Of a DNA stretch of 64,000 bases, positions 3 through 32,529 are shown piece after piece. The notes under the pieces were generated by a model, which saw nothing but the letters and a program-made list of their open reading frames with translations, made no database searches and was not told the DNA's origin. Origin of the DNA: an uncultured Gammaproteobacteria bacterium (GTDB lineage Bacteria; Patescibacteriota; Patescibacteriia; SBBC01; CAIJZX01). A program made the position numbers and the translations under genes. Numbering within the stretch: the first letter of the stretch is position 1; the number at the start of each line of letters is the position of its first letter. The stretch spans positions 54,597 through 118,596 of the forward strand of contig CAZFGG010000001.1 of assembly GCA_964518425.1 (NCBI GenBank), given 5' to 3'.

Positions 3-2425
<2,423 letters not shown>

Positions 2426-2429
<4 letters not shown>

Positions 2430-5192: not shown

Positions 5193-5969
5193 ATGTCATT
5201 CCTGTCCCGAATTCGTCAGGCCACGACCAATGGCGTTGTGCACGTGGGACAAGGAACAACACCGCATCAATCACTCGACAGCCCGAAAGCTTTCCGTCTG
5301 GTCGCCGCGATTGCGGCGGTCACCATCATCGGTAGTGGCTGGCTCGTGGCGCACAGTATCCGGAATGCCACCCGCGCACCAGTTGCTACCGTCACCAATA
5401 ACAGCGCTATCGTTCAACTGAATGCACTGAAGCAAAAAGATACCGACGGTGACGGACTGTCCGACTACGACGAGCTCTTTTCATACCACACCAGTCCCTA
5501 CCTGAAAGATAGTGATGGTGACGGCGTCCCAGATAGTCAGGAGGTAGACAAAGGATCAGATCCGAATTGTCCGCAGGGAAAAATCTGTTCGTCATTTACC
5601 CTGCTGACCTCACCGGTTGACGCTAACGGCAACCTGACCCCAGCTTTCCTGAGACAAGCCCTGAAAGATGCTGGCGTGCCACAAGCTCAACTTGATAAAA
5701 CCGATGACGCGACCCTTCTAAAAATTTATCAAAGCGTCGTTGGTCAGGCACCGGTGACGAATACGAACCAAGTTGCGACCAACACGAATAACACGCAAAA
5801 CACGAATGTTTCTTCCTCGCTCAGCCAGTTCACGAATCTCTCGGCCGCCGATATCCGACAACTTCTCATTAAGAACGGTGTCGATCAGAGTGTTCTGAAC
5901 AGCGTCGACGACGCCACGTTGAAACAAATTTTCCAGCAAGCCTACCAATCCAACCAGACTACTCCGTAA
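5193..5969 (+). CDS. Membrane-anchored/secreted hypothetical protein with DxDGDG Ca-binding-like (thrombospondin type-3-like) motifs and an internal C-terminal duplication
   Basis: N-terminal hydrophobic anchor (AAIAAVTIIGSGWLVA); DTDGDGLSDYDE and DSDGDGVPDSQE motifs; duplicated segment ...LKDAGVPQAQLDKTDDATLLKIYQ / ...IKNGVDQSVLNSVDDATLKQIFQ. Confidence 0.5.
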   Translation: MSFLSRIRQATTNGVVHVGQGTTPHQSLDSPKAFRLVAAIAAVTIIGSGWLVAHSIRNATRAPVATVTNNSAIVQLNALKQKDTDGDGLSDYDELFSYHTSPYLKDSDGDGVPDSQEVDKGSDPNCPQGKICSSFTLLTSPVDANGNLTPAFLRQALKDAGVPQAQLDKTDDATLLKIYQSVVGQAPVTNTNQVATNTNNTQNTNVSSSLSQFTNLSAADIRQLLIKNGVDQSVLNSVDDATLKQIFQQAYQSNQTTP

Positions 5970-5972
5970 GGC

Positions 5973-8900
5973 ATGTCCCGTCGCTCTCGCTTCATCTTCA
6001 TCTTGTTGACCAGCTTCATCCTGCTGGGCCAATTTGGATTTTCCGTTCGACCAGCCCAGGCCATTCTGGGAGTTGGCGATGTAACATTTAACACAACGGT
6101 TGAGGATATCCCTCGTAAAATTGCGGCGACAATAACGAAGGTCACCGACACGCTCAAAGGGAAACTGAAGACGGTGACTGACATCACATTTAAAAATTCA
6201 TTACAGCTCTTCACTAGCCGGTTGCTTCGAGAAGCGGCCACCCAAATCGCGACGGCTGGCCCTGGACAAAAACCACTCTTCCTGACGAATCCGAAGACCT
6301 TCTTCCGAAATGTCGCTAACTCAGCGGCCGGAGATTACATCGATAATTTTACCCGTGGCATTACCGGACAAACCGCGGCCTCGGTCGGCTCAACACGGAC
6401 GCGCTTTCTCATTTCCCGATTCTTGCGATCCTCACTTCCGAACCCGCTCAATTCCTGTCAGGACGATTGTCGAACGAACTACTCCGTCCGTTCGGACTTT
6501 TCACCCGGCGTCAGTAAACGCCCATCCGCGGAAAACGACCACGAAACAAAAATCAACGATGTCTTGGGCGTGTATCAAGACATTAACGGGAGTACCGTGC
6601 AACTTGCCAGTACTGATCCGAATCAACTGATGACTTGCCGCGAGGTCAACACGAAAGTCCCGTTCACCGGCAGTGTCCAACCCTACATTATCTCGCCGGG
6701 ATACCCTGGTACCCAGACCATTCCTCAAATCCAGGCCCAGCAATGTAAAAACCATCAAGAAGAAGCGATCAATAATGAAAAATCTGACGCCTACGCTGAA
6801 ACACTGCAGTGTTACAAAGACTGCCAAAACGGTTTAGCCGGCGTCGCAACCGGGGCCATCAACGCAGCTACGGCGACTGATGTTTTCACCGCAGTCAATA
6901 ACATTGAACCATCAAAAGTTCCTGGCGCTATAGCCAACGCCTTGTCCAACGATAAAAGCGATGTTGGGCAACTCCTTGGTGCGTTTGCAGGTTTAACGAC
7001 GGCCGTTCAAGACCGGATCACGGGTGAACAGACCAACCTCCAGCCGAACGTTCTCCCCCGGACGTCGACGGTCAGCGAGCAAGTCGCGAGTCCAAGCACA
7101 GTTACGACAGCGACCTTCTACGGTTTATTCCAAGTCAGTTCCAACGGCCAGTTTGTCTACACCGGCAGCGGTTTAGCTGACATTCTCAAAGGTATCGCTT
7201 CCTTCATCAATAGCCCGATCGGACAACTCTTCACTCAGTCATTCCGTAACAAGTGTGGCTTCAATCCGGATGCCTGTCGCGGACCGTCCAACCCGCAATC
7301 AGCTATCGGCCAACTCTTATTCGGCACAGGACTGCCGAGCGGCATAGCCGGCGCCCAAATCCAATTATCGTCACTTGGTCAACCGCAGTTGATCAGCGGC
7401 AACCCGGGGCAAAACGACATCCCGGTCACCGACCAACTCTCAACGAACGGTTTAATTGATAGTGGCTTCCGACAGGCTATTGAAGAAGAACTAACCGTTC
7501 AAGAAGCGCTGAATAAAAAACTACTCGATAGCCAGAAAGTTTTCGGCTTTGACCGCAACGGTGTTGAGCCACGAGACGGCTATCCGTATCGAGCCTTGCA
7601 GTACCTCCGAAAGTTCCGGGTGATTCCTGTTGGTTGGGAACTGGCGGCCAAGTACAAACAACAATTTGATAACCGTAACCTGACGCTCGGCAAGCTCGTT
7701 AAGGCTTTCAATATTTGTGGCCAAGACCAGCTTCTGGGAACGTGCACCAATGATCCCACTAGAACGTGCGTGACTAATCCAGACTGCACGTTTACACTGC
7801 CAAGCGGGACACAGAGCACTGGGCAATGTACGAATATCAAATTTTCGGGAACCCACGAAGTCTGCACCAATAATCCGGAGCAGGCCTGTCAGCTCGATGC
7901 CGATTGTGGTGGCGGCACGTGTGGCGCTAGCCCGTACTGTGGGCTCGTCGATCCGAACTGGGTTTTGAAAGCCCCGCAATCGTTCTGTCGACGACAAGGC
8001 GCAGGCGAAGAAATCTTAACCAAAGAATTCGTCTGTGATGAGAACAACGTTAACGGAACAACGAACGCGTCTATTCCACCGGGAACAATAGCACAACAAG
8101 CTGGTGATTCCGGCTCGCCGAATTGTGTTTTCGATGGGACAAATAACCAACATCCCGATATCGGTCACTGGGTAATCAGCCGCAATACCGATACCTGTGC
8201 TGATGTTCAATCGTGTATCGCCGAGAACGATGACGGATCGTGTATTGCCTACGGATACTGCGTTCAAGAGCGACAAACATTCAAGTTTAGCGGAACGCAG
8301 TGCGACGCTCAGAACGTTTCCTGTACAGCCTATACCGATAGTCAAGGCCAACCGCGAAGTTACCTGGCCAACACCCTTGATTTTCGGAATTGCACGGCCG
8401 ACAACGCTGGTTGTCAGTGGTACTGTCATAAGGTCTGCAGCGACGACCCTTCTCGATCCTGTAGTGTCGATGTCGATTGTGCTACTGGTAGCGGTACAAA
8501 TACGGCCACTTGTACCGGAGGATTTGATGCGAGTACGAACAGTTGGCTCTGCGCTGATCCGACTCTCGCGAACACTCCGGCCACCAACCCAACGATCAAC
8601 TTCACGAATAAAGTTGCGAAATGTGACCAGACGCAAGCTGGTTGCCAACAATACCTGCGAACGACCAATGGCACCAATCTCTTACCGAATAGCGGTTTCG
8701 AAGTCATCACCAATGGTGTCCAGGTTGGCAGCGGGGCTGACGCGATTTATGCCGACTGGCAGAATAGCAGCGGACTCCACGCGGTCCCAGTGACACCCGA
8801 TGACCCATTGATCACAGCCAACAACAGTGTCGCGGTGAACCTCAGCGGCTCAGGGGTGATCAGTCAAACGATAGATACCGGTGCCCATATCTACGAACAG

Positions 8901-11609
8901 ACGTTCACGGCCAGCGTTCGTGCCAAAGCCGCGGCTGCTTGTACCACCCGCCTCATTGTCAGCACGAATCTCGGCGGGAGCAACGTTTCATCCGACCAAA
9001 TGAGCGTCACGACCGATTGGCAGACATTTACGACAACCCTGGTTCTGCCGACGCAGCTCCAAGCTGGTACGGCCGACGACGGAAAAGTCGGCGTGGCCAT
9101 CCAAGTCGGAGGGTGCGCGAATCTCATTATCGATAACGCCCAACTCGAGCACGATGGACCGACGACCTATAAAGATTACGGCGCCATCAACGCTACCTAT
9201 CTCGGGGCCAAGCGCCAACAGTGCACCAAGGAAGATGTCGGCTGCCAACTCTACACCCCAACCGATGGCTCGCCCGCGGTGCCTGGACAAATTCTCAATA
9301 GCAATCGCTGCGACGCGCAAAACGTCGGTTGTAACCTCTACCACCTTGAACCGATCACGACGGTCCCCAAACGCAGCGGCGGAGATGTCACGGTCGTGGC
9401 GACCAAGGGCGAACAGTGCAGCGCCTCTGACGTCGGCTGCGAAGAATATACCAACCTTGATGAGGTGGCGAAAGGCGGCGAAGGGAAAGCCTACTTCAAA
9501 TCGGTGAAACAGTGCGTCAAGCCGAATGGCGACCCGGTCGTTGCCCCGCAGCAAACCTACTACACCTGGGTTGGAGATCCGAAAGCGGGATTTGTGCTCC
9601 GCGCCTATGACTTATTGAAATCAAATCTCGACGGAAACCCCTGCACGAATCTGACCGTTGGAACGGTTGGCACAACCCCGGCTTGTGATGATGCGAACCG
9701 ACCCGACCCGCAAAGCACCCTGTGCAATGCCTCGACCTTCGCTACGAACCCTGACTGTGGTCAGTACTATGATTCCAGTTTGAATGTCTACTACCGTTTG
9801 CGCCAAGCAACGGTCTCGGTCACGCCGGATTGTCATCCTTTCCGAAATACCATTGACCAGGATGATCAGAACGCTAAGAACAATATTTACTACCTGGCGC
9901 CGGAAGAAAATGTCAGCTGTTCAGCCGCCGCCGCTGGCTGCCGGGGCTACACCGGTAATGCGGCCCAGACGAGTCGACAAATTTTCCGCGATGATTTTGA
10001 AACCGCGACAACCAGTAACTGGGTTGGTGGCAGTATTTCCTCGGCCTCAATCAGTTTGGGCGGACATTCCATGCACATCCCTGGTAATAGCGCCGCCTAC
10101 CTGACGACAGCGGCGGTCAAAGGTAAACTTTTCAAGGGGAAGACATACCAGGTGACGCTCTTAGCTGCCGCGGCCAGCTCAACGGCGCCGCAACTCGGTG
10201 TCTGGCTTGGTCCGGTGACGAACGGAAAATTTGATGGTATTACGCCTTTCCAGCGCGATGCTAACGGGAATCCATTGACGGTCACGCCAACCTACAGTTC
10301 CTCGATTACGCCGCCTGGTCCCGAGTGGCACACCTATTCGTTTGGCCTTCTCACACTGACCCGCGATCCGACGAGCCTGACGCTTGGTCTGACTGTTGAT
10401 GGCGGTGACGCCTTCGTTGATAATGTTACCTTAACGGAAATCAACGACAGTCTCTACTTGGTGAGTTCGACAGTCCCGGCCTGTCCGGCCAGCGAGGTTG
10501 GTTGTGCCGCCTACACTGATCGCGATGGAAATACGGTCAACCTTAAATCATTCAGCCGGATCTGCTCGGAACAGGCCGTGAACTGTGAAGCCTTGATTGA
10601 CACGCACAACAGTACGTCGCCTGACGCCGAAACGATTAAAAATATTAGTACGCCGGCTGACAACGTCGTCCAAGTCGTCAATGATCCGGCCGTCAGTTGC
10701 CAAGCCGAAGCTAAGGGCTGTCAGGCCGTGGGCTTGCCAACCTACAATACCGACCACCTCCTGACGGGGTACCAGACGACGTATTTGAAAAATAACCCTG
10801 ACCTCTACTCGACAAACCTCTGTACGGATGGACGGAATGGAACACCGAACGAGCTCTTCTGCAGCGCCTACTCAACCTCGAGCGGGACAGTGGCTTTCTT
10901 CAAAGATCCAACCAATCAGACGTGTGAATTCCGAACGGATAATTCCACAGCTGGGGGACAATGGTATGTCACGGGAACAACGACCTTATGTCCGACGGTC
11001 ACGCCGCCTGAAGTCGGACGACCAGTCGGCGCGTCATGCACGCCGACCTGCGACGGGGGCCAGCGACTAGGCCGGGCCTGCGTCTCGAACGCTGACTGCC
11101 CGAGTGCAAAATGTACTGGCGACGCTGCGACGACCGGGCGGATTAATGACGGCTCCGGCAAAGCAATTATTGGTCAGTGCGGCTCGGATAGCAATTGCTT
11201 GGGCGGTAATAAGTGTCTGTACCAGGTTGGGACCTGTCCAGCCGAACAGAATTCCTGTACCGAATACCGCGACCCCACTGATCCAAAGAGTTGCCGCTCG
11301 GAATGTCCACTTGTTCAACAAGGGGGCAGCGCGGTCTTCGTAGACAGCACCTGTACCCCGACGGTCTGTCAGGGTGGCGACCAGGCGGGCAAAGGTTGCC
11401 AAACGAGCACCGATTGCAGCGGCGGAGGACAATGCGTTGGATTTGGCAGCACCCCGGCACTCGGCGCCCCTGGTTGCCGGCCATATTACTACCTGAGCTC
11501 GAGCGTCGAAGACACGGCCAAAGAGTGTAATGGCCAGGTCAACTTAGCTACCGGTTGCCGTCCATTCAATGATACCTTAAACCCAGTCCTTAACTTCCGC
11601 GGCCAATGA
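5973..11609 (+). CDS. Giant (1878 aa) secreted cysteine-rich surface protein, hypothetical
   Basis: Signal peptide MSRRSRFIFILLTSFILLGQFGFSVRPAQA; uninterrupted 5.6-kb ORF; >=10 copies of a C-x5-(G/S)-C-x-x-Y motif in C-terminal half; 3 nt after upstream stop. Confidence 0.7.
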   Translation: MSRRSRFIFILLTSFILLGQFGFSVRPAQAILGVGDVTFNTTVEDIPRKIAATITKVTDTLKGKLKTVTDITFKNSLQLFTSRLLREAATQIATAGPGQKPLFLTNPKTFFRNVANSAAGDYIDNFTRGITGQTAASVGSTRTRFLISRFLRSSLPNPLNSCQDDCRTNYSVRSDFSPGVSKRPSAENDHETKINDVLGVYQDINGSTVQLASTDPNQLMTCREVNTKVPFTGSVQPYIISPGYPGTQTIPQIQAQQCKNHQEEAINNEKSDAYAETLQCYKDCQNGLAGVATGAINAATATDVFTAVNNIEPSKVPGAIANALSNDKSDVGQLLGAFAGLTTAVQDRITGEQTNLQPNVLPRTSTVSEQVASPSTVTTATFYGLFQVSSNGQFVYTGSGLADILKGIASFINSPIGQLFTQSFRNKCGFNPDACRGPSNPQSAIGQLLFGTGLPSGIAGAQIQLSSLGQPQLISGNPGQNDIPVTDQLSTNGLIDSGFRQAIEEELTVQEALNKKLLDSQKVFGFDRNGVEPRDGYPYRALQYLRKFRVIPVGWELAAKYKQQFDNRNLTLGKLVKAFNICGQDQLLGTCTNDPTRTCVTNPDCTFTLPSGTQSTGQCTNIKFSGTHEVCTNNPEQACQLDADCGGGTCGASPYCGLVDPNWVLKAPQSFCRRQGAGEEILTKEFVCDENNVNGTTNASIPPGTIAQQAGDSGSPNCVFDGTNNQHPDIGHWVISRNTDTCADVQSCIAENDDGSCIAYGYCVQERQTFKFSGTQCDAQNVSCTAYTDSQGQPRSYLANTLDFRNCTADNAGCQWYCHKVCSDDPSRSCSVDVDCATGSGTNTATCTGGFDASTNSWLCADPTLANTPATNPTINFTNKVAKCDQTQAGCQQYLRTTNGTNLLPNSGFEVITNGVQVGSGADAIYADWQNSSGLHAVPVTPDDPLITANNSVAVNLSGSGVISQTIDTGAHIYEQTFTASVRAKAAAACTTRLIVSTNLGGSNVSSDQMSVTTDWQTFTTTLVLPTQLQAGTADDGKVGVAIQVGGCANLIIDNAQLEHDGPTTYKDYGAINATYLGAKRQQCTKEDVGCQLYTPTDGSPAVPGQILNSNRCDAQNVGCNLYHLEPITTVPKRSGGDVTVVATKGEQCSASDVGCEEYTNLDEVAKGGEGKAYFKSVKQCVKPNGDPVVAPQQTYYTWVGDPKAGFVLRAYDLLKSNLDGNPCTNLTVGTVGTTPACDDANRPDPQSTLCNASTFATNPDCGQYYDSSLNVYYRLRQATVSVTPDCHPFRNTIDQDDQNAKNNIYYLAPEENVSCSAAAAGCRGYTGNAAQTSRQIFRDDFETATTSNWVGGSISSASISLGGHSMHIPGNSAAYLTTAAVKGKLFKGKTYQVTLLAAAASSTAPQLGVWLGPVTNGKFDGITPFQRDANGNPLTVTPTYSSSITPPGPEWHTYSFGLLTLTRDPTSLTLGLTVDGGDAFVDNVTLTEINDSLYLVSSTVPACPASEVGCAAYTDRDGNTVNLKSFSRICSEQAVNCEALIDTHNSTSPDAETIKNISTPADNVVQVVNDPAVSCQAEAKGCQAVGLPTYNTDHLLTGYQTTYLKNNPDLYSTNLCTDGRNGTPNELFCSAYSTSSGTVAFFKDPTNQTCEFRTDNSTAGGQWYVTGTTTLCPTVTPPEVGRPVGASCTPTCDGGQRLGRACVSNADCPSAKCTGDAATTGRINDGSGKAIIGQCGSDSNCLGGNKCLYQVGTCPAEQNSCTEYRDPTDPKSCRSECPLVQQGGSAVFVDSTCTPTVCQGGDQAGKGCQTSTDCSGGGQCVGFGSTPALGAPGCRPYYYLSSSVEDTAKECNGQVNLATGCRPFNDTLNPVLNFRGQ

Positions 11610-14600
11610 CACGTTTTATCCAATCGCTCTCGTCACGAATCGCCCTCAGCGGAGTATCCGTGGTGATCATGGTTTTCCTGGCCCTCCATCTTTCACCGGT
11701 TGCTTGGGGTGCGCCGATATGTCTGGCTGGAGACTGCTCGGGAGGGGAAGTGTGTGTTTCAACCCAAGGCTGCGTGGCCATTAGCATGTCAGTCAACACC
11801 ATCGTGACGGCCACAACAGTTGGATACAACGTTGATGTGAATGGCGTTGATCCATGGACGCTCTACGCCTGCCTCGGGCCCCGTACGGTCTGCGACACCA
11901 AACCGCACTCGGATACAAATTTTTGGAAGCAGGTTGGTGCCGTCGACCTCAAGACGAAGTTCGCGGTTTATAACGTTCGTCCGGGTAAGACCTATACTGC
12001 TTCACTCTTTGTTCAAACCGATCCAACCACAACGCTTGAACAGGAAGCCACGGCCACGACCTGGCCAGCTTTTCCCGCCCCTCCGACAATCAGCAACATT
12101 GGCCAGAATACAGCCACGATTAATTGGGCGCTGCCATTCTCAGCCGATTCAAAAGTGCGTTATGGTATTTTCCCCCAAGACTGGCAAAGTGAATATTCTT
12201 TGCCAGCCGGACAAACATTCTCAGCCGTCGCCGGGCTCAGTTCGGGAAAATCCTGGGCCGTTGGCCAAAGTGGCGCCATTGTGAATCGAACTATTTCGGG
12301 CTGGCAAGTACAAAATAGTCAGACGACCGCTGATCTCATCACGATTGATGGCTACGACGATAATTCTTTATGGGTCGCGGGAAAAGCCGGAGTAGTGCTC
12401 CGTACAACGAATGGGGGCGGATCCTGGGATTCACAAAGCGCACTCTATTCAAACCCAGCCGATGATATTTATGGCATCAGTACCTCAACCGACTCGACGG
12501 CCTGGATTGCTGGTACTCAAGGGGTCCACTTTTTTGACGGCAGCCTGTGCCAAACACGAACACCGCCAGTCTCCGGTTCTTTCTATTCAGTCTTAACCCT
12601 CAATAATCATGAAGTGTGGGTTGGAGGCAGCACCGGCAAGGTCTATCATACTATCAATGGTGGAACGATCTGGACGACGCAAAACACCGGAGGAGCTGGT
12701 ACCATTAATACTTTAGCTAGTCTTGATGGTAAAACGATTTGGGCTGGAGGCGCGAACGGTGGACTCTGGCGCTCAACTGACAGCGGGCAAACGTGGTTGA
12801 CGATGACGACGGGTACGGCGCAGCAAATAAATAGCCTATCCATGCTCTCACCATCGGAAGTCTGGTTCGGAGCCGCAAATGGAATAGGTAGTTCAACGAA
12901 TGCCAATGGTGCAAACCCTACATTCACGTTTGACGCGAGCGTCCTCGGCGCAGTCCCGTCTGTACAGAGCATTGCCTTCGCGAATGGATCAAGTCTGATT
13001 GCCGTTGGCCAGAATAAGCTGGGGGCCTATCGCTGTCACTCGAGTCCGACCTCGTGTGCGAATGTTCAAAGCGATTCAAATATTATTGTTCCGCCCAGTA
13101 GCCATAGCGTTCAACTCAACGGTCTATCGCAAGGCCAGCCATACTTTTTCTCGGTCGAATCCGTTGGTTCGGGAGTCGGCTGGGGAGCTTTTGGAACATT
13201 CATGACCGGCCAACCGGATACTATTCCTCCCGTGACCGCCTTTATCAATCCACCCTCTCCCGGCCCGACGTATACGAATACCACGCCATTCGCGGTAACT
13301 GGGACAGCCAGCGATACCCCGCCTGGTTCCGTCCAGAGTGTCACGTTAACAAAAAACGGCACACCGCAAAGCGTCAGCGGTACGACCTCGTGGTCATCAA
13401 ATGTGGCTCTATCACCTGGCCTGAACGCCTTGGTGGCGACGGCGACTGATGGCGGCAGCAATACCGCCACCGCCAATAGCAGTCTCTTCTACGACGCGAC
13501 AAAGCCAGTAGTTTCTATTACTGCACCGACCAACGGCTCAACAGTCAATACCAATCCTTTTAACGTTACCGGAACCTCAACCGATAATGCGGCCAACGAC
13601 TCGGGCCTAGCCTCCATTGTGATGACGGTGAATGGTGGAAGCCCACAAAGTATTGCGGTCGCGGCCGGTACGGGATCATTCAACTGGAATGCTTCAGCCA
13701 GCCTCAACGTTGGATCGAACACCGTCGCCGTCACGGTCGCTGATCGAGCGGGGAACACGCAAACGACTCAAGTGACCTTCACCTATGTTGCCCCGAGTTT
13801 TAATCTGACTGTGACCCCGGCCAGCCAAACAGCATTTTCTGGAGATATTGTGACCTACACCGCAACGCTGACTTCGCAAAATGGCTTTGCCGGCTCGGTC
13901 AATTTGTCGGCCGTTGTTGCCCCCGGCGGCCCGACCGTCTCATTCAGTCCAAGTGTTGTTACCTTGACTGCCGGTTCAACGGCTACGAGCACCCTGACGG
14001 TTGCGACGGCCGGCGCTAACGGGAATACGTATACGATCACCACGACCGCTACCGGCGGTAGTGTTACAAAAACAGCCAGCGTCCAACTCATTCTCAAGGC
14101 TGCTCCTGACTTCAGCATCTCCGCCACCCCCTCGCCGCTGAGTATCATCGCCGGACAATCAGGTAGCTACACGGTCACCGTGTCGGCCAATAATACGTTT
14201 GCTGGACCAATCACCTTTTCAGTTACCGGTATCCCATCGAATGTGACCGGAACATTTAGCCCCCCCTCAGTTACCTTAGCGAACTCTCAAATTACGACGG
14301 TCAGTCTCAATATCGTGACCCAAGCCACTGCGGCCAATGGTGATTACCCATTAACCATTACCGGTAACGGAACGAATGCCGCCAACGGCCAGATTATCAC
14401 GCCCGCGCCAACCACATCAGTCATTCTCCATATCAGTCCAGCTCCGGATATTGGCCTCAATTTTACGCCAGCCAGCCAAACGGCTAATGCCGGAGGATTA
14501 GCGGTCGTGTACTCGGGGACCGTCACAAGTATGAACGGTTTTGGAGGAACGGGGACGCAGGTCAACCTGACGGTGACGAGTGATTATGCAGGCTCTGGTT

Positions 14601-15757: not shown

Positions 15758-15763
15758 ACGACT

Positions 15764-18700
15764 ATGGTGACCCGACCCTCAACTCATAAACGATTCACGC
15801 TGATTTTCTTGGCGGTGGCTTTAGCCGTGATGAGTTACGTTCGATCATCATCAGCCCAAACCAGTGGTCCTCAAATTACCTCGATCACTGTCTCGAATGT
15901 TTCCTCGAATAGCGCCGACATTGGCTACACCATAAACCCAGCGGCGGGCAGTCGGATTGTTTACGATTTGTCCGCTCATGCCCAAGCAAGTGACTATCAG
16001 TTTGCCTGCGACGGTAATGCCTGCGGAATCCCGCCCTCGTCGGCCACCTACACTGCCGATGTCACCAGTAACGTCCTGACGATTACCGGCCTTCAGATCA
16101 GCACCACGTATCATTTCCGCATCGAGGCAAAAAACGCCAATGGTACGACCGCCAGCGCCGATCGCACCTTCGCCACAACTGGCGCTGGCGGTGGCGGAGC
16201 AAGCGTGACCATCACCGACATTAGCTATAGCTGTGACGGATCTCAGTGCCGAGTCGGATTTAGTACCAATATTGACGCTATCGTTGAGGTTCGTTGGATG
16301 GATAACGCGGCGTACCAGGCCAATCCGCCGGCTGATTGTGATAGCTACCCAAATTCGACTGCCGAATCCACCGCGGCCAAAGGCCTGCGATCATTGCTCG
16401 TTGCTGCGCCGGGGCAACCAAAGTTAGCTCTGGATACGAAATATCATTATTGTATCAAGGCCACGGCTGGGGCCAGCCAATCGCATACCAATGACCTGAT
16501 CTTACAGACGCCAATTTCTAGTTCTGACCACACCTTCTCGACCGGGGCTTGCCCGGATGGAACGGCCATTGGTTCGTGTAACAAGGATCGGAAATATTGT
16601 GATAACAACGGTATTCTTGTCACGAGCTGTACATCAATCTGCGGCTTGATTTGCCCGAGTAATTCGACCTGTAACCAAAGCGGGCAATGCGTTGTCGATC
16701 CAACCCTAGGGACTTCGCCATACCAGTGTAATCAAGCCAGCTGCTATAACAAGAATGGACAACTCATCATTCCGGCTCCATCCGGCTGCTATGCCTCCTG
16801 GCCGCGATGTAACGCCAATACTATTTTGAAGGTCCGGAAAGACCGGGGATGTAACCTCTGGCTGACCTGCTCAACGAGTCTTCAGACCGAACCGACGGCT
16901 AACGCACCAGCCGAAAACCTCTGTCTGAGCCTGGCGGCTTGTAATAGTTTAGGGATCGAAGGTCAATGTAATAAATATCTTCCCCAAGGGCAGTGCAGCA
17001 ACGATCCGTTACGTTTCTGTTCGTCCGATACCGACTGCTTGGCCGGCGGAACGTGTAATATCTCGCCGACGGAGAACCCGACGAAGACATTACAGAACAT
17101 CACCTATCAGACGCCGGAAGACATCAGCCATATTGCCGACCTGTCTGGAAATGTTATTGCTGGCCTGGACTGGCACCAGCAAGGCGGCTCCAATGTTATC
17201 CAAGGATTCTTGCCATGGCAACTCATGCGCCAAGTTGGTGGCAACGCCGAATTGAAGAATGGAGACTTCGAGTACAATCCGCCGAGCGTTAGCCCGTGGG
17301 AAGTCGCGCCGCTAGCGAAGAATGGCGATAATCCAGGCTCAACATCAATCAACATTGATTTTGAAGACCGTGACAACAGCATCAATCATGTCTTAGTCGT
17401 CAGCCCGGTCGTGGAGAGCGCGCTAGCCACAAAACACTGTCAGGTAACGACGTATGCTAGTGGCGCGCAACAAGGCAAACCAGTTGACTGCAGCGCAACG
17501 GATAGCGTTTGTACCGCCGCCAACGATCAATGCGTAACCGATACGACAAATGTTAAGTTCTCGGGCGCTGTTTCAGGAACATTCACCGCGGCCCCATCAG
17601 AATATTACTATGCCGAAGCTCGGATTAAATCTCCTTCCGGCAACCCGCGCGTTCGTTTCCAATTTGGCTACGCCGGATATACGAAATTTAACGTCCCCAA
17701 TGGAAGCGGCTCAACGAATACCTTTGTCGACGTTCCGGTAACGAATGCCTGGCAACGGGTAACACTAGGCCCACTGAATGGCATGTCCGGTGAAACTCGA
17801 TTTGGCGCAGTCTGTGCGGAGACCGATCCAGCGACCTGCAGCACCTTCTGGCTGGATGATGTTCAAATCCGACCGGTCCTTCAGGTCGACACGAACCCCA
17901 CGTTCATCACGCCGAGCTGCCGGCTCTACCCGAAAGATGACTCACCGTCATGCGATTACGTCGATCAGAACAATGTCGTCTACAAAGGCTGGCATGGTTA
18001 CTGCCTTGAACACGATTCACAAACCGGGACCTGCTTATCCTGGTGGCCAGTTGATATCATCAAAGGTGAATCGAATGTCTTCGGCGCGGACACACCGGCT
18101 GGATATAAAGACCGGGCTCCGTTATTCATGTGTGCCGAAGCAGCCGGGTTGAATGGCTTAAATGAATTTGATGTTTCCAAGTCGTACACCGCGGGATTTG
18201 ATTACCAAAACTTCGTCGCATTTTCTCCGGCTTCCGGAAACTGTGACTCGGCAAAGGCCTCCCATTTCACCATTGCCACCTGCACTCGTGACGAGTCTGG
18301 AAATTTATTACCAATCTGGTTTGTCAAACAGGGCGCTAATCGGGCTGATGCCGGGATATCAATGGACCAGATCGTCAGCATTCATTGGAATTCGGTTGGA
18401 CAGTTCGCATCCGAGAATCCAACGTTTGTCGTTCATAATAACGATGCTCTGCGCGGCTCGACAGCATTAAGTCCAGCAGAAACCGGAACGGATGGAGGTC
18501 ATGATTGGAGAATATGGCAGAGTGTTGATGCAGCGGCCAATGAAACATCCTGGATTTTTTCTAACGTTACTCCGTGTCAGCGCGTCGGATTGAGTAATGG
18601 GGGACAAAACTGCGTCTACGGCGGGATCGTCTTTGATTCAACAACGAAGTTAGTGAAGCGGTACGAGCTGATCGAAAATGACCGCACCGATGGTGTCGAT

Positions 18701-20128
18701 GGGACAGGCGTTGCTGAGCCCGCCACATATCAGGTGGTTTTCGACCTTAAAGAATCATGCAGCACGTTAGTTGAGGTCGTCGACCCACAGGGTGATAACC
18801 AAGCCTTTGCCTCGCGAATTAATTCTTCTTCATACCAAGTACCGAACCTCCAGTATGGGAGTGGTGCCGATTTGCCACCCTACGGAGGAGCCGTTGCTCC
18901 GGCCAATGGGAACGCGTTACCAGTTGATTGGCCGCTCTTACCGATCGTCAAGCCCGATTATGTTACGTTTACACCGCCGGGCCAAGCTCGGGGAGGATCA
19001 CCATATGGCTGCAAAGGAAAATGTGATGCCTTGGTCTGCACAACCAACCCAGCCAATACTTGCTCAACACCCCAGCTCATTGACCAGTGTCAACATCCTG
19101 ACCCGACCTCAAATATTCAGCCGGGGGATTGTACCGGCACCGGCAGTGGGTTCAATGGTTCGAATCTTGGAGTCCAGAAATATACGGCGGCAGACCAGTT
19201 GACCACGGATAAACAATATTTTGCTCAAGAGCGCATCCGGCGTATCTTTGCGGCTTCGTTCGGTATTTACGCCTGGGACGCCACGTCACAAAAGTATGTC
19301 CTCTCGGGCGCCCATTTTGATAGCCCTACCCAAGTCTGCCCAGTCCAACAAGTTGCAGGACTTTGTGCCACGGTTTCCGCTACATGTAACGCCACAGCAC
19401 CCGTGACGGGTAACGGCACGTCGGCTCAGGCCGCCAAGGATAATGCGAAGTCCAAATGCCAACAAATCGTGGCCTGCGATGGGACCAAAGCCGAATGCCC
19501 GAGCAGCGGCGATCAATTAAAATACAACGACATTGCTTCCCCAACGTGCAGTGGCAGCGGTACGAACTTTACCTGTACAGCAAGCTGCATCTTTGACCAG
19601 GGTACGAATACCTATAGCAAGGCTACCACCGTTACACAGCCAGGCGGCCCGCGACCCGTCCGCCCAGCCTATCCAAATGACTTTTGTGCGGTTCCGCCGA
19701 CAGTCAGTGGATCCGCCTTCCTGAATTCGCCCGCCACGACTGCTACGATCGATAGTGGCAGTGGCACCGTCGGGATTAAGTTCAATTCCAACGCTGATGC
19801 CGACCAGGTCCCGCTGCGAACCATCAGCATTGACTGGGGTGATGGTCCGGCCTTGTCGTATAGTTACACCTTCGCCCCTCGGAACGATCCATCGAAACCA
19901 CATATCTTTGCTCACCCCTATGTGATCGGCGGAACCCCATCACCTGGATCATCCTGTGGCACTGACAGCAGTGGTCGCTTCGTCTGCGCGTATCATATTA
20001 AGATTCAGGTCCAAGACCATTGGAACTGGTGTAGCGATACCAAAACCGATGCCAGCTCGGTCAAGAATTGCAGTACCAATTCAGCCAACTGGTTCGACAC
20101 CGGCTTGACGGTCAAAGTCGCGCAATAG
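15764..20128 (+). CDS. Giant (1454 aa) secreted protein with N-terminal FN3-like domain and Cys-rich regions
   Basis: Signal peptide MVTRPSTHKRFTLIFLAVALAVMSYVRSSSA; FN3-like segment (SGPQITSITVSNVSSNSADIGYTINP...YHFRIEAKNANGTTAS); many paired cysteines. Confidence 0.7.
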   Translation: MVTRPSTHKRFTLIFLAVALAVMSYVRSSSAQTSGPQITSITVSNVSSNSADIGYTINPAAGSRIVYDLSAHAQASDYQFACDGNACGIPPSSATYTADVTSNVLTITGLQISTTYHFRIEAKNANGTTASADRTFATTGAGGGGASVTITDISYSCDGSQCRVGFSTNIDAIVEVRWMDNAAYQANPPADCDSYPNSTAESTAAKGLRSLLVAAPGQPKLALDTKYHYCIKATAGASQSHTNDLILQTPISSSDHTFSTGACPDGTAIGSCNKDRKYCDNNGILVTSCTSICGLICPSNSTCNQSGQCVVDPTLGTSPYQCNQASCYNKNGQLIIPAPSGCYASWPRCNANTILKVRKDRGCNLWLTCSTSLQTEPTANAPAENLCLSLAACNSLGIEGQCNKYLPQGQCSNDPLRFCSSDTDCLAGGTCNISPTENPTKTLQNITYQTPEDISHIADLSGNVIAGLDWHQQGGSNVIQGFLPWQLMRQVGGNAELKNGDFEYNPPSVSPWEVAPLAKNGDNPGSTSINIDFEDRDNSINHVLVVSPVVESALATKHCQVTTYASGAQQGKPVDCSATDSVCTAANDQCVTDTTNVKFSGAVSGTFTAAPSEYYYAEARIKSPSGNPRVRFQFGYAGYTKFNVPNGSGSTNTFVDVPVTNAWQRVTLGPLNGMSGETRFGAVCAETDPATCSTFWLDDVQIRPVLQVDTNPTFITPSCRLYPKDDSPSCDYVDQNNVVYKGWHGYCLEHDSQTGTCLSWWPVDIIKGESNVFGADTPAGYKDRAPLFMCAEAAGLNGLNEFDVSKSYTAGFDYQNFVAFSPASGNCDSAKASHFTIATCTRDESGNLLPIWFVKQGANRADAGISMDQIVSIHWNSVGQFASENPTFVVHNNDALRGSTALSPAETGTDGGHDWRIWQSVDAAANETSWIFSNVTPCQRVGLSNGGQNCVYGGIVFDSTTKLVKRYELIENDRTDGVDGTGVAEPATYQVVFDLKESCSTLVEVVDPQGDNQAFASRINSSSYQVPNLQYGSGADLPPYGGAVAPANGNALPVDWPLLPIVKPDYVTFTPPGQARGGSPYGCKGKCDALVCTTNPANTCSTPQLIDQCQHPDPTSNIQPGDCTGTGSGFNGSNLGVQKYTAADQLTTDKQYFAQERIRRIFAASFGIYAWDATSQKYVLSGAHFDSPTQVCPVQQVAGLCATVSATCNATAPVTGNGTSAQAAKDNAKSKCQQIVACDGTKAECPSSGDQLKYNDIASPTCSGSGTNFTCTASCIFDQGTNTYSKATTVTQPGGPRPVRPAYPNDFCAVPPTVSGSAFLNSPATTATIDSGSGTVGIKFNSNADADQVPLRTISIDWGDGPALSYSYTFAPRNDPSKPHIFAHPYVIGGTPSPGSSCGTDSSGRFVCAYHIKIQVQDHWNWCSDTKTDASSVKNCSTNSANWFDTGLTVKVAQ

Positions 20129-20129
20129 T

Positions 20130-23100
20130 ATGAAACGATTTCTTTCACGCTTGCGCCGAATCCCCCATCGCTGGGCGCTGTTGAGTAGCCTGGTTATCGT
20201 CGTAGTACTCATAGTTATTTGGCCGAGTCCGGCCCGGGCTGATGTTCAGCAGGTCATCTTCAGTGATATCTTAAGCCCGATCGTGACGGCCATGATCCGG
20301 CTCTTCGCCTTATTGACCGCCTACATCGTCGGACTCCTCATTCTCGTCGCCCAACAAAATAATTTCATCAATTCCGCGCCCGTCGTGACGGGCTACCCGA
20401 TCGTCCGCGACTTAGCGAACATGATCTTCATTATCGCTTTGTTGATTATTGCCGCCGGTACGATTCTACGCTTAGAGAATTACCGCTACAACCGCTTGCT
20501 CGGCCGGCTGATTGTCATGGCGTTCTTGGTCAACCTGGCGCGCTTCATTACCGGATTCTTCATTCAAACCTCGCAGGTGTTCATGCTGACGTTCGTCAAT
20601 GCGTTCAAAGACATCGCCCTTGGTAACTTTGCCAACATGTTCGGCTTAGATGTGGTCTTGAAATTCAGCCAACAGAACCCGACGGCGACAGATGCCTCGT
20701 TATTCATGACCTTGGTTGGCGGCCTGGCCATGATGATTATCGCCTTCTGTGTCATCTTAGCCGTTGTCGTCATCCTGATCGTCCGGATCGTGGCCTTATG
20801 GATATTGACCATCTTATCGCCGCTGGCCTACGCCTTACGCATTATCCCGAACACCGAACGGTATGCTTCCCAGTGGTGGAGCGAATTCGGAAAGTACGTC
20901 GTTTCCGGTCCGGTCCTGGCCTTCTTCCTCTGGCTGGCACTTGCCTTGAGCGCCGGTTCGGCCAACCAAAGTAGTGTCCTTTTCCAGAGCGTCAACGGCA
21001 CGAGCGGCGCGAATGCCAATCTCACGAATCAGGTCCAACAGCAACTCGCTCCGATTCAGAAGGATTTTGTCACGGAGATTTTCTCGATGCCCCGGCTGAT
21101 GACCTTCATCGTCTCGATCATTTTCCTGATGATGGGTATGCAGTACGCCAGTAAATCGGGCGGCGCGGGAGCCGGATTTGCGAAAAGAATATATGAGAAA
21201 GGACTTGGTGTCGGCGCGACGGCTACTGGGTTGAACGCTATCCGCAGCCAAATCAACGAACGAGCGGTTGCTCCGGTTCAAGGCTGGATTAAAAACCGTC
21301 AGGCGGCTCGGCAAGGGAGGATTCAGGAACGAACGGCGGCCCTCGAGTCGGCCGGCGCCCGTATTCGATCGCAGGCCCCGGTCATGCCCGGTATTCTTGG
21401 CCGCGAAGGCCGCGAACGGGCAGCCGCGAGTGCCCAGAATATTGAAGGACAACGGACCCAGCAATTCATCCAATCCCGCGGTTTACAGAATTTGCCGCAT
21501 GACGACGTTATGACTCGTTTCTTGACGACGACCGGTCGCGAACAATTAGCGGCCATGACGGTCTTAAAAGACCGCGGGCGGATTAATCTCCAAGACCCCA
21601 ACCAAGAAAAAGCCTTCAACCAGGCTATGGCCTGGAACCGTGTCCCAGAAGGCGATCGCCTAAAGATGCGTGAGGAGATTTTTCGATCCAATATGGGAGG
21701 TATGGATGAGAATAGTATTCGCGCCCGCCTGGGAGCTTCAACCGATCCGGAACAGCGGATCCAATTTGCTCAAGAGCTCCAGCGCCGGCAACTGTTAAAA
21801 GTAGGACGAGCCGAAGATGAACAAATTTCAGCCGGACTGCTGAACGATTTGGCGGCTAACCCGGAACGGTTGCAAGCTGCTCGTGAATCAATGATGAAAA
21901 CCAATCCGGACATGGCAAAAAAAGTCATCTTCGGGAGCCTAGCGGATTCATCAAGTCGGAGAGCGTTCTTGAGCGCCATTCAACAGAAGCAAATGAACCC
22001 GTCGGCTTTAAATCATGCAGTTCAAGATACTTTTGCCCGAGCGGGTGAAGCTGCCGCAATAGGTAATTTCCTGAATCAAATCAGCCCGGATGCAGAGACG
22101 CTGAATTCGTATAGACGTCAGATGGATCCAGAAGCGGCTCAGGAAATTTTCAGTCACCTCACGATTGCCGATGATGCTTCAGCTGAAGAACGGCAGAAAG
22201 TTGCCCGTGTAACAGGAGAATGGGGCAAGGCATTTACGCAATCCAATGGCACCTTCTTAACCGCAAAAAACTCTGATGGCACATCAAAGAAAAATTCTGA
22301 TGGAAGCGATGTCACACTTGCACAAGAGTTTGCCAGCAAACTAGGTGGAGAAGAAATCAGTAAGAATATTTCTCTGCAAGCTCTGAAAGATCAGAATGTC
22401 TTACAGTCCTTGAGACGATCAGATAATATGAAGGCCTCTCATTGGGAAGCCCTTCGCAAACGGAATAAGGAAACACGTGCGGCGCTTGAGGAAGGTTTGA
22501 AAGGTTATGCTGATCACCTGGGTGCCGAGGCTTATGATAAGCAAGGAAATATTATTCTGGATCTCGAGAAGCTCGGGGGGAATGAAGATCGCTTTAAAGA
22601 AAATGAATTTGTTGTTCGTAACTTGATGTTGGCTAGTAAAGGCAAAGAGAATCGGTACAACTTGGCTGATGAGAAAGCCCGCCAAGCGTTTGAGCGCTTA
22701 GTCAGCGGTGCCAGCGCTGCAGACTTAAGTGACATAACAAAGTCGCCAGTTTATGCGGCTCATACTGATACCGTTAATCTCCTCTTTGGTTGGAAGGGAA
22801 AGATGAACGAGGTAGCTGAAATGTTAACCGAAAACTATCAGTTTGCGGTGGACGCCATGAAAGAAACGGAAAAAACACTGACTGAAAAAATCAAAGCTGG
22901 CGGTCGAGAAGGAAGTATTGCCTACAACCGACTGAAAGAGATGTCCAAGCATCCAATTTTGAGTAATTATATTGCCTACCCTGAAAAGCCATCAGAAGGA
23001 GGAGGTAAGGGAGGTACGGCAGCGGCAGCTGCTGCTGGGGTAGCGGCGGGGGTAGCGGGTATGGCCGCTGCTGGTGGTATGGGAGGAAGTAGCCAGCCAG

Positions 23101-23720
23101 GACCCGAGTCTAGCGGTCCGAGTGGATCGACGCCCCCTCCACCGAATGGACCATCAGGCGGAGGAGCGGGGCGAGCTGGCCGCCGACCCTCTGGAGGAGG
23201 ATCTGGCCAAGCCTATCGGCAAGCTCAGCGAGCTCAACCCCCATCCCCGGGATCACCAATTGTTGTCCCAAGCGATGCGGATTTTCCATCCGATGAAGAA
23301 CGAAGCCGTGATCCTCGAATCGAACGACTCTCGCCAAAGCAAAAGGAACTTCGTAACAAAGTCGTTCAGCTCAGAGACGTTGTGGCCGGGGACAACGCGC
23401 TGACGTCGGATGATCGCCGCAACCTGAGAGAAGCTTTTGAAACAATCTTGAGTGAGCGCGATCAGGCACGGTTCCAAGCATTGATTCAATACGCTAACAA
23501 GGGCGGCAAACTCTCGGCTACAGAGAAGAAACAGTTTGAGGATCTTCTCGTAACCCTGGGGGCTGCTGATACGACGTATCAACAACCCGGCGCTGCTCGT
23601 AGTAGGAGCAGTAATCTAGGAGCTTCAACACCTTCCGAAAAAAGAACGATTCGTGATGCCGAGGCTGAAATTATTGAAGAGCCGCCAAGTCCTCCTCAAC
23701 AACCGAAGGAGAATTCATGA
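20130..23720 (+). CDS. Large polytopic membrane protein, VirB6/TrbL-like (Gram-positive PrgH/TcpH/ConG-type architecture) with long low-complexity C-terminal domain
   Basis: Starts 2 nt after upstream stop; about 8 predicted TM helices in first about 330 aa, followed by about 850-aa hydrophilic domain with coiled-coil, Gly/Ala-rich (GGGKGGTAAAAAAGVAAGVAG) and Pro-rich tracts. Homology call by architecture/genomic context only. Confidence 0.45.
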   Translation: MKRFLSRLRRIPHRWALLSSLVIVVVLIVIWPSPARADVQQVIFSDILSPIVTAMIRLFALLTAYIVGLLILVAQQNNFINSAPVVTGYPIVRDLANMIFIIALLIIAAGTILRLENYRYNRLLGRLIVMAFLVNLARFITGFFIQTSQVFMLTFVNAFKDIALGNFANMFGLDVVLKFSQQNPTATDASLFMTLVGGLAMMIIAFCVILAVVVILIVRIVALWILTILSPLAYALRIIPNTERYASQWWSEFGKYVVSGPVLAFFLWLALALSAGSANQSSVLFQSVNGTSGANANLTNQVQQQLAPIQKDFVTEIFSMPRLMTFIVSIIFLMMGMQYASKSGGAGAGFAKRIYEKGLGVGATATGLNAIRSQINERAVAPVQGWIKNRQAARQGRIQERTAALESAGARIRSQAPVMPGILGREGRERAAASAQNIEGQRTQQFIQSRGLQNLPHDDVMTRFLTTTGREQLAAMTVLKDRGRINLQDPNQEKAFNQAMAWNRVPEGDRLKMREEIFRSNMGGMDENSIRARLGASTDPEQRIQFAQELQRRQLLKVGRAEDEQISAGLLNDLAANPERLQAARESMMKTNPDMAKKVIFGSLADSSSRRAFLSAIQQKQMNPSALNHAVQDTFARAGEAAAIGNFLNQISPDAETLNSYRRQMDPEAAQEIFSHLTIADDASAEERQKVARVTGEWGKAFTQSNGTFLTAKNSDGTSKKNSDGSDVTLAQEFASKLGGEEISKNISLQALKDQNVLQSLRRSDNMKASHWEALRKRNKETRAALEEGLKGYADHLGAEAYDKQGNIILDLEKLGGNEDRFKENEFVVRNLMLASKGKENRYNLADEKARQAFERLVSGASAADLSDITKSPVYAAHTDTVNLLFGWKGKMNEVAEMLTENYQFAVDAMKETEKTLTEKIKAGGREGSIAYNRLKEMSKHPILSNYIAYPEKPSEGGGKGGTAAAAAAGVAAGVAGMAAAGGMGGSSQPGPESSGPSGSTPPPPNGPSGGGAGRAGRRPSGGGSGQAYRQAQRAQPPSPGSPIVVPSDADFPSDEERSRDPRIERLSPKQKELRNKVVQLRDVVAGDNALTSDDRRNLREAFETILSERDQARFQALIQYANKGGKLSATEKKQFEDLLVTLGAADTTYQQPGAARSRSSNLGASTPSEKRTIRDAEAEIIEEPPSPPQQPKENS

Positions 23721-24442
23721 CCCAGGATCCAAAGCTCTATCTCGAAGCCATAAAACGTCTTCCCCCATTGATGCGTCAGATTTTGAATAACGAAGCACTG
23801 GTCAGCCAAGCAATCACTCTTGGTGAAAAATACCATCTTTCACCTCAGCAAGAAACAGCCCTTATGGAGATTGAGCGAGAAGTCATTGCCCAAAATCTCA
23901 AAGTAATTGATATTGAAATGCGAATTCGAAACTCTCTACAAATTGATGCAACGTTGTCACAACAAATAGCTCGAGATTTCTTAGGAATGATCATTCTGCC
24001 GATGGAATGGTACCTTGGTCCAGTACAACCATTAATTCAGAAACTTGGGGGCCAGACTGAAATCTATTTCGATCAGGCCAAGAAAAATTTCCCGGAGATT
24101 TATCGTCAGTCTCCGACCAGCCAACCGATTCAAACTGAACAAGGTATTCTTTCAAAAGCTACTTCGACTATTTCTCCTGCTATCTTGGAAAACTTTGATG
24201 ACCGCCTGACCTCCTTTAAGGGCCGGGCCGAAGTTCTTCTGCGCTTGACCGGACTGTCGTCTCACTTGGAAGAGATGATGAAAAATAAGCAGGTCAGTAC
24301 GGAAGAAGGACAACAATTGATGCAGCAGCTCGACAGCATTTCCTACGCCGTCAACACCCAGGACCTCAACCAGTTCGAGGTTCAGTCAATCAAGCGTCAT
24401 TTGACGAAAGTTCTTGATCGGATCGGGCAGGCCCAAGCGTGA
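23717..24442 (+). CDS. Hypothetical cytoplasmic protein, translationally coupled to VirB6-like gene
   Basis: ATGA overlap at 23717-23720; 241 aa, no TM segments; no recognisable motif. Confidence 0.45.
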   Translation: MTQDPKLYLEAIKRLPPLMRQILNNEALVSQAITLGEKYHLSPQQETALMEIEREVIAQNLKVIDIEMRIRNSLQIDATLSQQIARDFLGMIILPMEWYLGPVQPLIQKLGGQTEIYFDQAKKNFPEIYRQSPTSQPIQTEQGILSKATSTISPAILENFDDRLTSFKGRAEVLLRLTGLSSHLEEMMKNKQVSTEEGQQLMQQLDSISYAVNTQDLNQFEVQSIKRHLTKVLDRIGQAQA

Positions 24443-29283: not shown

Positions 29284-29286
29284 ATC

Positions 29287-32526: not shown

Positions 32527-32529
32527 TTC

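Follow-up and report, generated by a model that had tools for sequence, protein, structure and literature searches.

Five plus-strand genes between positions 5193 and 23720 of the 64,000-nucleotide stretch of DNA analyzed here (the window) encode a small membrane protein, three giant proteins with signal peptides and a VirB6/TrbL-like membrane protein. They make up the front part of a chromosomal type IV secretion system (T4SS) of the Patescibacteria type, monoderm and MPF-FATA-derived. Judged by gene order in related genomes, the giants remain linked to the secretion apparatus far more often than chance would allow, and we propose, with slightly better than even confidence, that the giants belong to a Sec-exported, disulfide-rich host-contact or adhesin module, which would work with this Candidate Phyla Radiation (CPR) T4SS through an extended VirB6. 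Proteins are named here by the letter w and their length in amino acids (aa), the five genes encoding, in their order, w258, w1878, w1383, w1454 and w1196.

Conserved linkage of the giant and VirB6-like genes

Eighty loci were fetched with an alignment of the VirB6-like transmembrane (TM) domain, from at least 500 relatives in species-representative genomes. In 48 of the 58 loci that have at least 6 kb of sequence ahead of the VirB6-like gene, a w1878 or w1454 homolog is encoded upstream of it on the same strand, and in about 20 of these 48 linked loci at most 150 nt separate the two. The converse search, starting from giant homologs, identified a VirB6-like gene downstream in three of three loci. 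A check of comparative synteny had been suggested in an earlier reading of the window made from its letters (the sequence-only reading), and in related genomes the linkage was indeed kept. The same reading had described the giants as hard-wired to the apparatus; adjacency holds in some lineages, but in many genomes tRNA synthetases and other genes stand between the giant and VirB6.

Forty-five loci have sequence on both flanks: 30 of them contain both the giant and the VirB4 module, six the giant only, nine the VirB4 module only, and none lacks both. This split suggests that the VirB6-like gene is a hub between an extracellular module and an ATPase/pilin module. In the window, PrgI and VirB4 are encoded 5–6 kb downstream of w1196 on the same strand, as is likewise the case in 39 of the 45 related loci.

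One ancestral giant encoded in two parts

Three consecutive giant proteins had been recognized in the sequence-only reading. The three open reading frames (ORFs) stand, but they appear to represent not three separate giants but one giant split in two and one inserted gene. A Falkowbacteria protein of 2717 aa, whose gene lies upstream of a VirB6-like gene, matches w1878 along its first ~1650 residues (7e-87) and w1454 along its last ~900, and both halves are found in a single ORF of 2400–3224 aa in 32 species-representative loci. w1878 is collinear with residues ~10–1880 of the fused giants; in the fused giant of locus L016 the w1878 alignment stops at residue 1882 and residue 330 of w1454 begins at 1885. 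The simplest reading of these alignments is that w1878 and w1454 each make up half of what was once a single giant of ~3000 aa. Since they form one ORF in most lineages, the two products are tied together. The split form, in which a w1383-like gene separates the halves, and w1383 homologs as such were found only in the Kerfeld-like set (seven of the 80 loci, plus L001, L003, L087 and L089), and w1383 would, most simply, be a lineage-specific insertion between the giant halves, the signal peptide and FN3 region of w1454 being new acquisitions.

Searching 1.84 billion representatives with a profile of the N-terminal 600 residues gave 1219 clusters (50% identity), of which 974 reach E ≤1e-10; the best matches are mostly 2400–3600 aa long with the domain at the N-terminus, and no Pfam model covers this domain. 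It was this exhaustive profile search that was informative, a word-indexed search with a 21-sequence alignment of a short N-terminal block having given four fragments. Between lineages the giants are 25–34% identical. Compared with Kerfeldbacteria GCA_016193315 (L001), the identity is 84% for VirB4, 75% for TrsD and 67% for PrgI, versus 52% for the C-terminal third of w1878, 43% for w1454, 42% for VirB6 and 36% for w1383; this order suggests a slower evolution of the motor than of VirB6 and the surface module.

Features of the giants and the TSP3 protein

The first gene of the string (5193..5969, plus strand) encodes w258, which has one TM helix (aa 33–56), two calcium-binding TSP3_bac repeats (Pfam, 3.2e-11) and two copies of a ~40-aa helical motif. 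Its homolog is located directly ahead of the giant in 23 of the 80 loci and also in L005, L087, L088 and L089, and w258 is a candidate membrane tether for the giant.

The putative N-terminal half of the ancestral giant, w1878 (5973..11609, plus strand), starts with a signal peptide, followed by a conserved cysteine-poor helical region (aa ~30–600, motif GPGQKPLF) and then by cysteine-rich modules; two of its regions resemble carbohydrate-binding modules (CBMs) or jelly rolls, the Pfam matches to DUF642 and CBM_4_9 being weak. The predicted exported protein w1383 (11606..15757, plus strand) consists of a BNR/Ycf48-like beta-propeller (Pfam PSII_BNR 1.3e-8, NCBIfam Ycf48 4.8e-11, PDB Ycf48 8.5e-10) with the Asp-box motif (SxDxGxTW) in the form STDSGQTW, and of Ig-like (Glucodextran_B, Big_7) and FN3-like domains. 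In w1454 (15764..20128, plus strand), aa ~330–1454 correspond to the C-terminal half of the putative ancestral giant, whereas aa 1–330 comprise the signal peptide and an FN3 domain identified by Pfam; a PKD-like end motif, IDWGDG...HPY, was recognized by eye.

The sizes of 1878, 1383 and 1454 aa given in the sequence-only reading were confirmed. The signal peptides that it had assigned were read by eye: all three giants have a charged and then hydrophobic N-terminus with AxA-type sites (PAQA/I, VAWG/A and SSSA/Q). Its BNR, FN3/Ig-like and cysteine-rich modules were likewise found, by Pfam, by the PDB match to Ycf48 and by cysteine counts of 83 in w1878, 19 in w1383 and 63 in w1454. In 30 full-length homologs of w1878, the mean identity to w1878 is 0.51 overall and 0.93 at cysteine positions, and 75 of the 83 cysteines are kept in at least 90% of the homologs. 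Such conservation is a signature of structural disulfides; it suggests that the protein is exported and folded and that purifying selection acts on it over its full length. The least conserved parts are the CBM-like regions (aa 901–1080 and 1381–1440) and aa 181–240; low conservation of the CBM-like regions is what would be expected of ligand-binding parts.

Searches of the giants and of w1196 against Pfam, NCBIfam, PHROGs and PDB sequences yielded peripheral domains or nothing. In the giants, neither PrgB adhesin or polymer-adhesin domains nor toxin or enzyme domains were detected with Pfam and NCBIfam, and BLAST found no internal repeats at E ≤1e-3. A likeness of the w1878 N-terminus to VirB5 was looked for with Foldseek, using a model of low confidence (pLDDT 48), and with a PDB profile search, and nothing meaningful was found. 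These results agree with the previous description of the giants as exported, adhesin-like proteins that have no assignable function.

The extended VirB6-like protein

The protein w1196 (20130..23720, plus strand) is polytopic at aa ~1–345, with about seven hydrophobic helices in aa 10–341, and continues in a ~850-aa hydrophilic C-terminal domain, which is free of cysteines (the whole protein contains one) and includes a Gly/Ala/Pro-rich linker. Charge counts made by hand gave contradictory results as to the membrane side of the C-terminal domain.

The assignment to VirB6/TrbL-like proteins made in the sequence-only reading held, on three grounds: matches of the relatives to PF04610, a fold match to TrwI and the VirB3 and VirB4 neighbors. 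w1196 itself has no Pfam or NCBIfam match and stays below any TrbL threshold. Its relatives, at least 174 proteins of 800–1900 aa, have in common an N-terminal domain of ~350 aa with 35–70% identity, and some of them are annotated with PF04610 or PF19590. When 23 aligned relatives, 35–52% identical in the domain, were scanned singly, nine matched PF04610 (TrbL/VirB6), the best with E 1.4e-7. When the alignment of this TM domain was used as a profile against the PDB, nothing was found. The AlphaFold2 model of aa 1–400 is all-helical (pLDDT 77, core pLDDT >90), and the top five matches of this model in Foldseek are five chains of R388 TrwI/VirB6 (probability 0.98–0.99, TM-score ~0.45), which is the best match among natural proteins. 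No second VirB6-like gene was recognized in the T4SS string of the window, which leaves w1196 as the sole VirB6 candidate for the VirB4 machine.

The gene string and its transcription signals

The five plus-strand ORFs (5193–5969, 5973–11609, 11606–15757, 15764–20128 and 20130–23720; 258, 1878, 1383, 1454 and 1196 aa) are separated, in this order, by +3, −4 (ATGA), +6 and +1 nt, in agreement with the spacing of −4 to +6 nt in the sequence-only reading. The products w1878, w1383, w1454 and w1196 are on record in identical form on a 176,935-bp NCBI contig, so that independently called gene boundaries agree with these coordinates.

The spacing had been interpreted as obligate co-translation, which is an over-reading: short spacers are general across this compact window, in which nearly all genes are tightly packed and the giants are not special. 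Of the uninterrupted 18-kb operon proposed for 5193–23720, the tight gene run stands but not the extent, as the same-strand string continues to 36601 with PrgI, TrsD, VirB4 and pilins, and its only two real gaps are 186 nt past 24732 and 155 nt past 27160.

A sigma-70-like promoter match at 5010..5038 on the plus strand (TTGACG, 17 nt, TG-n-TATAGT), located in the 179-nt gap before 5193, is the sole 10/12 match in 4700–24600 and is a consensus match only. In the same interval, terminator-like sites are fewer than in shuffled sequences. Both observations are consistent with one transcript but are no proof of it; one long transcription unit probably begins at ~5040. Clear Shine-Dalgarno sequences are present at the downstream genes w241, w363 and w385. 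The giants have none, which is compatible with translational coupling.

Proposed role and alternative explanations

The proposal of a host-contact module draws on the gene content and homologies, on the splitting of the giant, on the linkage and on the conservation of cysteines. The string would contain, in order, an extracellular module, an extended VirB6 as channel or platform, PrgI/VirB3, TrsD, VirB4, a VirB8-like candidate and VirB2-like pilins. The extracellular module would comprise the membrane-anchored TSP3 protein, the giant made as two polypeptides and the added BNR-propeller/Ig protein. Using their own signal peptides, the giants would leave the cell by Sec and fold outside it into rigid, disulfide-stabilized proteins with CBM-like, Ig, FN3 and propeller domains, to be retained at the surface by the TSP3 anchor and/or by the external face of VirB6. 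They would thus serve as the host recognition and attachment part of the T4SS, like PrgB-type adhesins in Gram-positive conjugation. The notion that the giants are "feeding into" VirB6 was not borne out: Sec-type signal peptides and highly conserved cysteines indicate that they are most simply surface components and not T4SS substrates.

A more specific version of this proposal, to which we give little credence at present, is that the giant forms the part of the Patescibacteria T4SS that stands outside the cell as a stalk or tip, corresponding in function to VirB5 but hugely enlarged. The cysteine-poor N-terminal domain would then dock on the VirB6 oligomer, aided by the TSP3 anchor, and the variable CBM-like modules would bind glycans of the host envelope. 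If so, the giant would set the host range and make the contact by which the epibiont draws on its host; the split and the BNR/Ig insert in Kerfeldbacteria would then be a lineage-specific re-tooling of the tip.

Several observations weigh against a host-contact module coupled to VirB6. The gap between giant and VirB6 is filled with 0.7–7.9 kb of other genes in 28 of the 48 linked loci, among them tRNA-synthetase-like (including Met-tRNA synthetase-like) genes in the Falkowbacteria-type loci L045, L047, L048, L062, L063 and L084, and no giant was found within 10 kb in ten loci. Neither an LPXTG/sortase signal nor a C-terminal TM helix was found in any of the giants, that is, no recognized anchor, and the AlphaFold2 model of the giant N-terminal 620 aa (18 homologs) has a pLDDT of 48 and offers no usable docking surface. 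The sole experimentally studied T4SS cluster of the CPR, SEML1_0006–0019 of Southlakia, contains extended VirB6 and lysozyme/peptidase proteins but no cysteine-rich giant. Finally, the housekeeping genes upstream of the string (LeuRS, Sua5, MFS, KsgA) are also syntenic in relatives, ksgA even in Falkowbacteria, and since these neighbors are syntenic too, adjacency alone is weak proof of function.

The last point leads to the explanation that the giants are ordinary envelope or S-layer-type proteins, whose position next to VirB6 is merely a gene order inherited in slowly rearranging small genomes. It could account for the unrelated ksgA, Sua5 and LeuRS kept beside the block as well as for the tRNA synthetases and other genes between giant and VirB6 in many Falkowbacteria-type loci, and large cysteine-rich exoproteins are common in CPR generally (PMC4736985, PMC8080830). 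We nevertheless consider it unlikely, because the association spans lineages in which the giants have diverged to 25–30% identity, it outlasts the separation of the VirB6 and VirB4 modules in six loci, the gap is at most 150 nt in about 20 loci, and all giant matches are on the VirB6 strand. The same six loci, with giant and VirB6-like gene but no PrgI, TrsD or VirB4 within 7–10 kb downstream, could point to a self-contained module of TSP3 protein, giant and VirB6-like protein, in which the latter acts as an anchor, platform or assembly factor independently of VirB4 secretion; one of the six is from Falkowbacteria, in the complete genome CP066698, in which metabolic genes come next, and the long C-terminal domain of the w1196 family is absent from canonical VirB6. 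This explanation seems to us distinctly improbable given the 30 loci with all three parts in one string, the nine with a VirB6-like gene and VirB4 module but no detected giant, the lack of any other recognized VirB6 candidate for the VirB4 machine of the window, and the essentiality of extended VirB6 genes in the Southlakia T4SS cluster (PMC10633639).

The giants could also be substrates or effectors of the T4SS, reaching the host either directly or, as pertussis toxin does, by Sec export and then a second step. Their genes stand together with those of the T4SS, and protein export has been proposed for CPR systems because these have no relaxase and coupling protein (PMC10633639). Yet the Sec-type signal peptides and ~150 strongly conserved cysteines imply that folding and disulfide formation take place outside the cell, which is hard to fit with a monoderm T4SS channel, and Ig/FN3/CBM/propeller proteins of 1400–3200 aa in which no toxin or enzyme domain was detected resemble adhesins; we regard this as very unlikely. 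Effectively refuted is the possibility that the giant genes were brought in by a phage or a conjugative element; unrelated cargo such as phage tail fibers had been named in the sequence-only reading as a finding that would overturn it. T4SSs often reside in mobile elements and giant repeat proteins can be tail fibers, but none of the five proteins has a PHROGs match, tblastn found nothing in collections of 50,697 phage and 72,556 plasmid records, and no relaxase, integrase or coupling protein was found among the scanned ORFs. The GC content is even across the region and the same housekeeping genes flank the block in several genomes, which, together with the lack of phage or plasmid similarity, indicates a stable chromosomal locus.

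Comparison with known systems

In the prgQ operon of pCF10 from Enterococcus faecalis, the adhesins PrgA, PrgB and PrgC are encoded upstream of PrgH (VirB6-like), PrgI (VirB3) and PrgJ (VirB4). The window shows the same succession of exported surface proteins, a VirB6-like protein, a VirB3-like protein and VirB4, and both are long same-strand T4SS strings of the monoderm type. Unlike the pCF10 adhesins, the giants have no sequence kinship to them, no LPXTG motif and no PrgB domains; they are two to three times larger and disulfide-rich, and the system of the window is chromosomal and not conjugative. The analogy is therefore functional only.

Extended VirB6 proteins include the Rickettsiales VirB6 paralogs and TraG of F. 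Like w1196, they combine a polytopic N-terminal domain of at least five helices with an extensive hydrophilic domain at the C-terminus (review PMC12857230; Southlakia SEML1_0013 and SEML1_0011), and w1196 differs from them in that it has no threshold match of its own to Pfam TrbL. Both Southlakia genes, SEML1_0013 and SEML1_0011, are essential (PMC10633639). With the VirB5–VirB6 stalk of R388 (PDB 7o3v, 8rt9) the window shares a TM domain, that of w1196 matching TrwI, and a Sec-exported protein with a helical N-terminus encoded directly upstream; R388 VirB5 has ~220 aa, so that the giants are far larger, and the helical N-terminus of the giant comes from predicted secondary structure only.

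The T4SS of Patescibacteria, as described for Southlakia epibionticum (Wang et al. 2023, PMC10633639) and in a phylum-wide survey (Quinonero-Coronel et al. 2025, PMC12102498), shares with the window VirB4, TrsD, PrgI/VirB3 and an extended VirB6. Further features in common are several VirB2-like pilins, no detected relaxase or coupling protein, a chromosomal location and, in ABY1, recG and comF nearby. The difference is in the giant: for the described systems no adhesin and no giant family upstream of VirB6 have been reported. Adhesins, including the PrgB type, were not detected in Patescibacteria T4SS loci in the 2025 survey (PMC12102498), and the adhesin component is thus missing from the known system. 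Very large proteins of CPR with signal peptides that are cysteine-rich or have adhesin domains, proposed to act in attachment, have been described as extracellular proteins of Peregrinibacteria (PMC4736985) and, in Vampirococcus, as giant membrane proteins (PMC8080830); neither a family nor a connection with VirB6 or a T4SS was described for them, and they are likened to the giants by description only.

The Patescibacteria T4SS, extended VirB6 and large cysteine-rich exoproteins of CPR are thus already known. From our sequence comparisons, what is not described in the searchable literature is a defined giant family, its place before VirB6 in ABY1-type lineages and its fission in Kerfeldbacteria. 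The role of the T4SS in Patescibacteria was called "completely unknown" in a 2024 perspective (PMC11665869), although it is essential in the only genetically tractable member of this group. The position of the family before VirB6 in many lineages makes the giants the best candidates for the missing host-contact part, and the family is a concrete candidate that can be tested in Kerfeld-, Falkow- and Magasanikbacteria and relatives. Because the giant is split in some lineages and fused in others, it also marks a domain boundary useful for expression and structural work. The result is a comparative-genomic lead, with an inferred function, that makes an open question about the T4SS testable.

The T4SS locus downstream and its genomic setting

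Downstream of w1196 the string continues with w241 and w97 (23717..24732, plus strand), small soluble proteins encoded by genes that overlap by 4 nt each. They match no Pfam family, and their homologs follow the VirB6-like gene only in Kerfeld-like genomes (5–6 of the 80 loci). The overlapping genes of w363, which has C-terminal TM helices, and w385, a polytopic membrane protein (24919..27160, plus strand), have no Pfam or PHROGs match and no homologs among 86 related loci (the 80 fetched loci, L001 and L003 among them by name). Found in this genome only, the pair looks like a recent insertion and is probably no core part of the T4SS. The proline-rich soluble protein w494 (27316..28800, plus strand) has neither a Pfam match nor a Walker A motif and is associated with the T4SS by conservation, its homolog being located directly ahead of PrgI in 53 of the 80 loci.

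The PrgI family protein, the equivalent of VirB3 (28804..29283, plus strand; Pfam PF12666, 2e-9), is followed by a TrsD/TraC-like protein that resembles the N-terminal part of VirB4 (29204..30028, plus strand; NCBIfam TrsD 5.7e-6, VirB4_plasma 2.9e-11) and by the VirB4-type ATPase, the signature motor of a T4SS (30040..31962, plus strand; Pfam P-loop_TraG 2.4e-30, AAA_10). The listed TTG start of the TrsD ORF overlaps PrgI by 80 nt and homologs align from aa 29–47 on; the true start is probably the ATG at 29288. Over-long ORF calls were likewise seen at 33072–34160 and 35306–36601. A split or frameshifted VirB4 (29204–30028 plus 30040–31962) was ruled out, the first ORF being the TrsD/TraC-like protein that normally precedes VirB4. 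Next come w186, with an N-terminal TM helix and a globular domain, and the membrane protein w222 (together 31966..33198, plus strand). Homologs of w186 (31966–32526) come after VirB4 in 38 of the 80 loci, and w186 is a candidate VirB8-like subunit; VirB8 homologs were almost confined to class ABY1 in the 2025 survey (PMC12102498). The order w494, PrgI, TrsD, VirB4, w186 is kept in about 50 of the 80 loci.

Two VirB2-like T4SS pilin paralogs with cysteine-containing extensions (33072–34160 and 35306–36601, plus strand; Pfam T4SS_pilin 4.6e-7 and 4.4e-9) are 48% identical to each other and enclose a predicted exported PD40/beta-propeller protein (34177–35424, plus strand; Pfam PD40). A third, short VirB2/TrbC-like pilin is encoded beyond recG on the minus strand (38715..39047; Pfam T4SS_pilin 4e-8, TrbC 5e-4). 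The cluster thus contains three proteins with PF18895, and VirB2-like pilins are unusual for monoderm systems. In two Kerfeldbacteria relatives, the last pilin gene is fused to Peptidase_M23, a cell-wall hydrolase (L001 22401–22904, L003 22496–22865); no M23 match was seen in the window counterpart at 35306–36601. Neither a relaxase nor a VirD4-type coupling protein was found among the window ORFs scanned with Pfam and NCBIfam, a few small ORFs being left unscanned. On its flanks are recG and a comF-like gene, a neighborhood that has been reported for ABY1 T4SS loci (PMC12102498) and that is thus shared by the locus of the window.

The Patescibacteria origin suggested in the sequence-only reading was borne out by these comparisons: the closest named relatives, by sequence similarity, are Candidatus Kerfeldbacteria (ABY1 class), and the organism is Kerfeldbacteria-like. 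Many species-representative metagenome-assembled genomes with the block (L009, L011, L012 and others) are titled "uncultured Gammaproteobacteria bacterium", which is almost certainly a placeholder or mislabel in Third Party Annotation (TPA) assemblies.

Some further observations were made in the related loci and elsewhere in the window. The gaps between giant and VirB6 in the Falkowbacteria-type loci listed above also contain a signal-peptide protein of ~410–430 aa and a conserved hydrophilic protein of 205–350 aa, the latter always immediately before the VirB6-like gene. The LeuRS at 156–2429 (plus strand) is truncated by the start of the window, and the fragment has a NUDIX hydrolase domain (aa 193–312, 2.1e-15) inserted between its editing domain and the remainder of its catalytic core; this insert is annotated in L087 and not in L089. 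Past three tRNA genes, the region 41313–45200 (plus strand) encodes a 312-aa NHL-repeat beta-propeller protein and a 970-aa protein with a beta-helix and Big_7, further predicted exported adhesin-like proteins outside the T4SS block. At 54767–62457 (plus strand), just upstream of pilM (62588–63652), a 696-aa protein with a pretoxin-HINT domain at its end (3.1e-13) comes before two proteins, 452 and 1410 aa long, that match no family; this may be a polymorphic-toxin-like or surface-protein cassette located next to type IV pilus genes.

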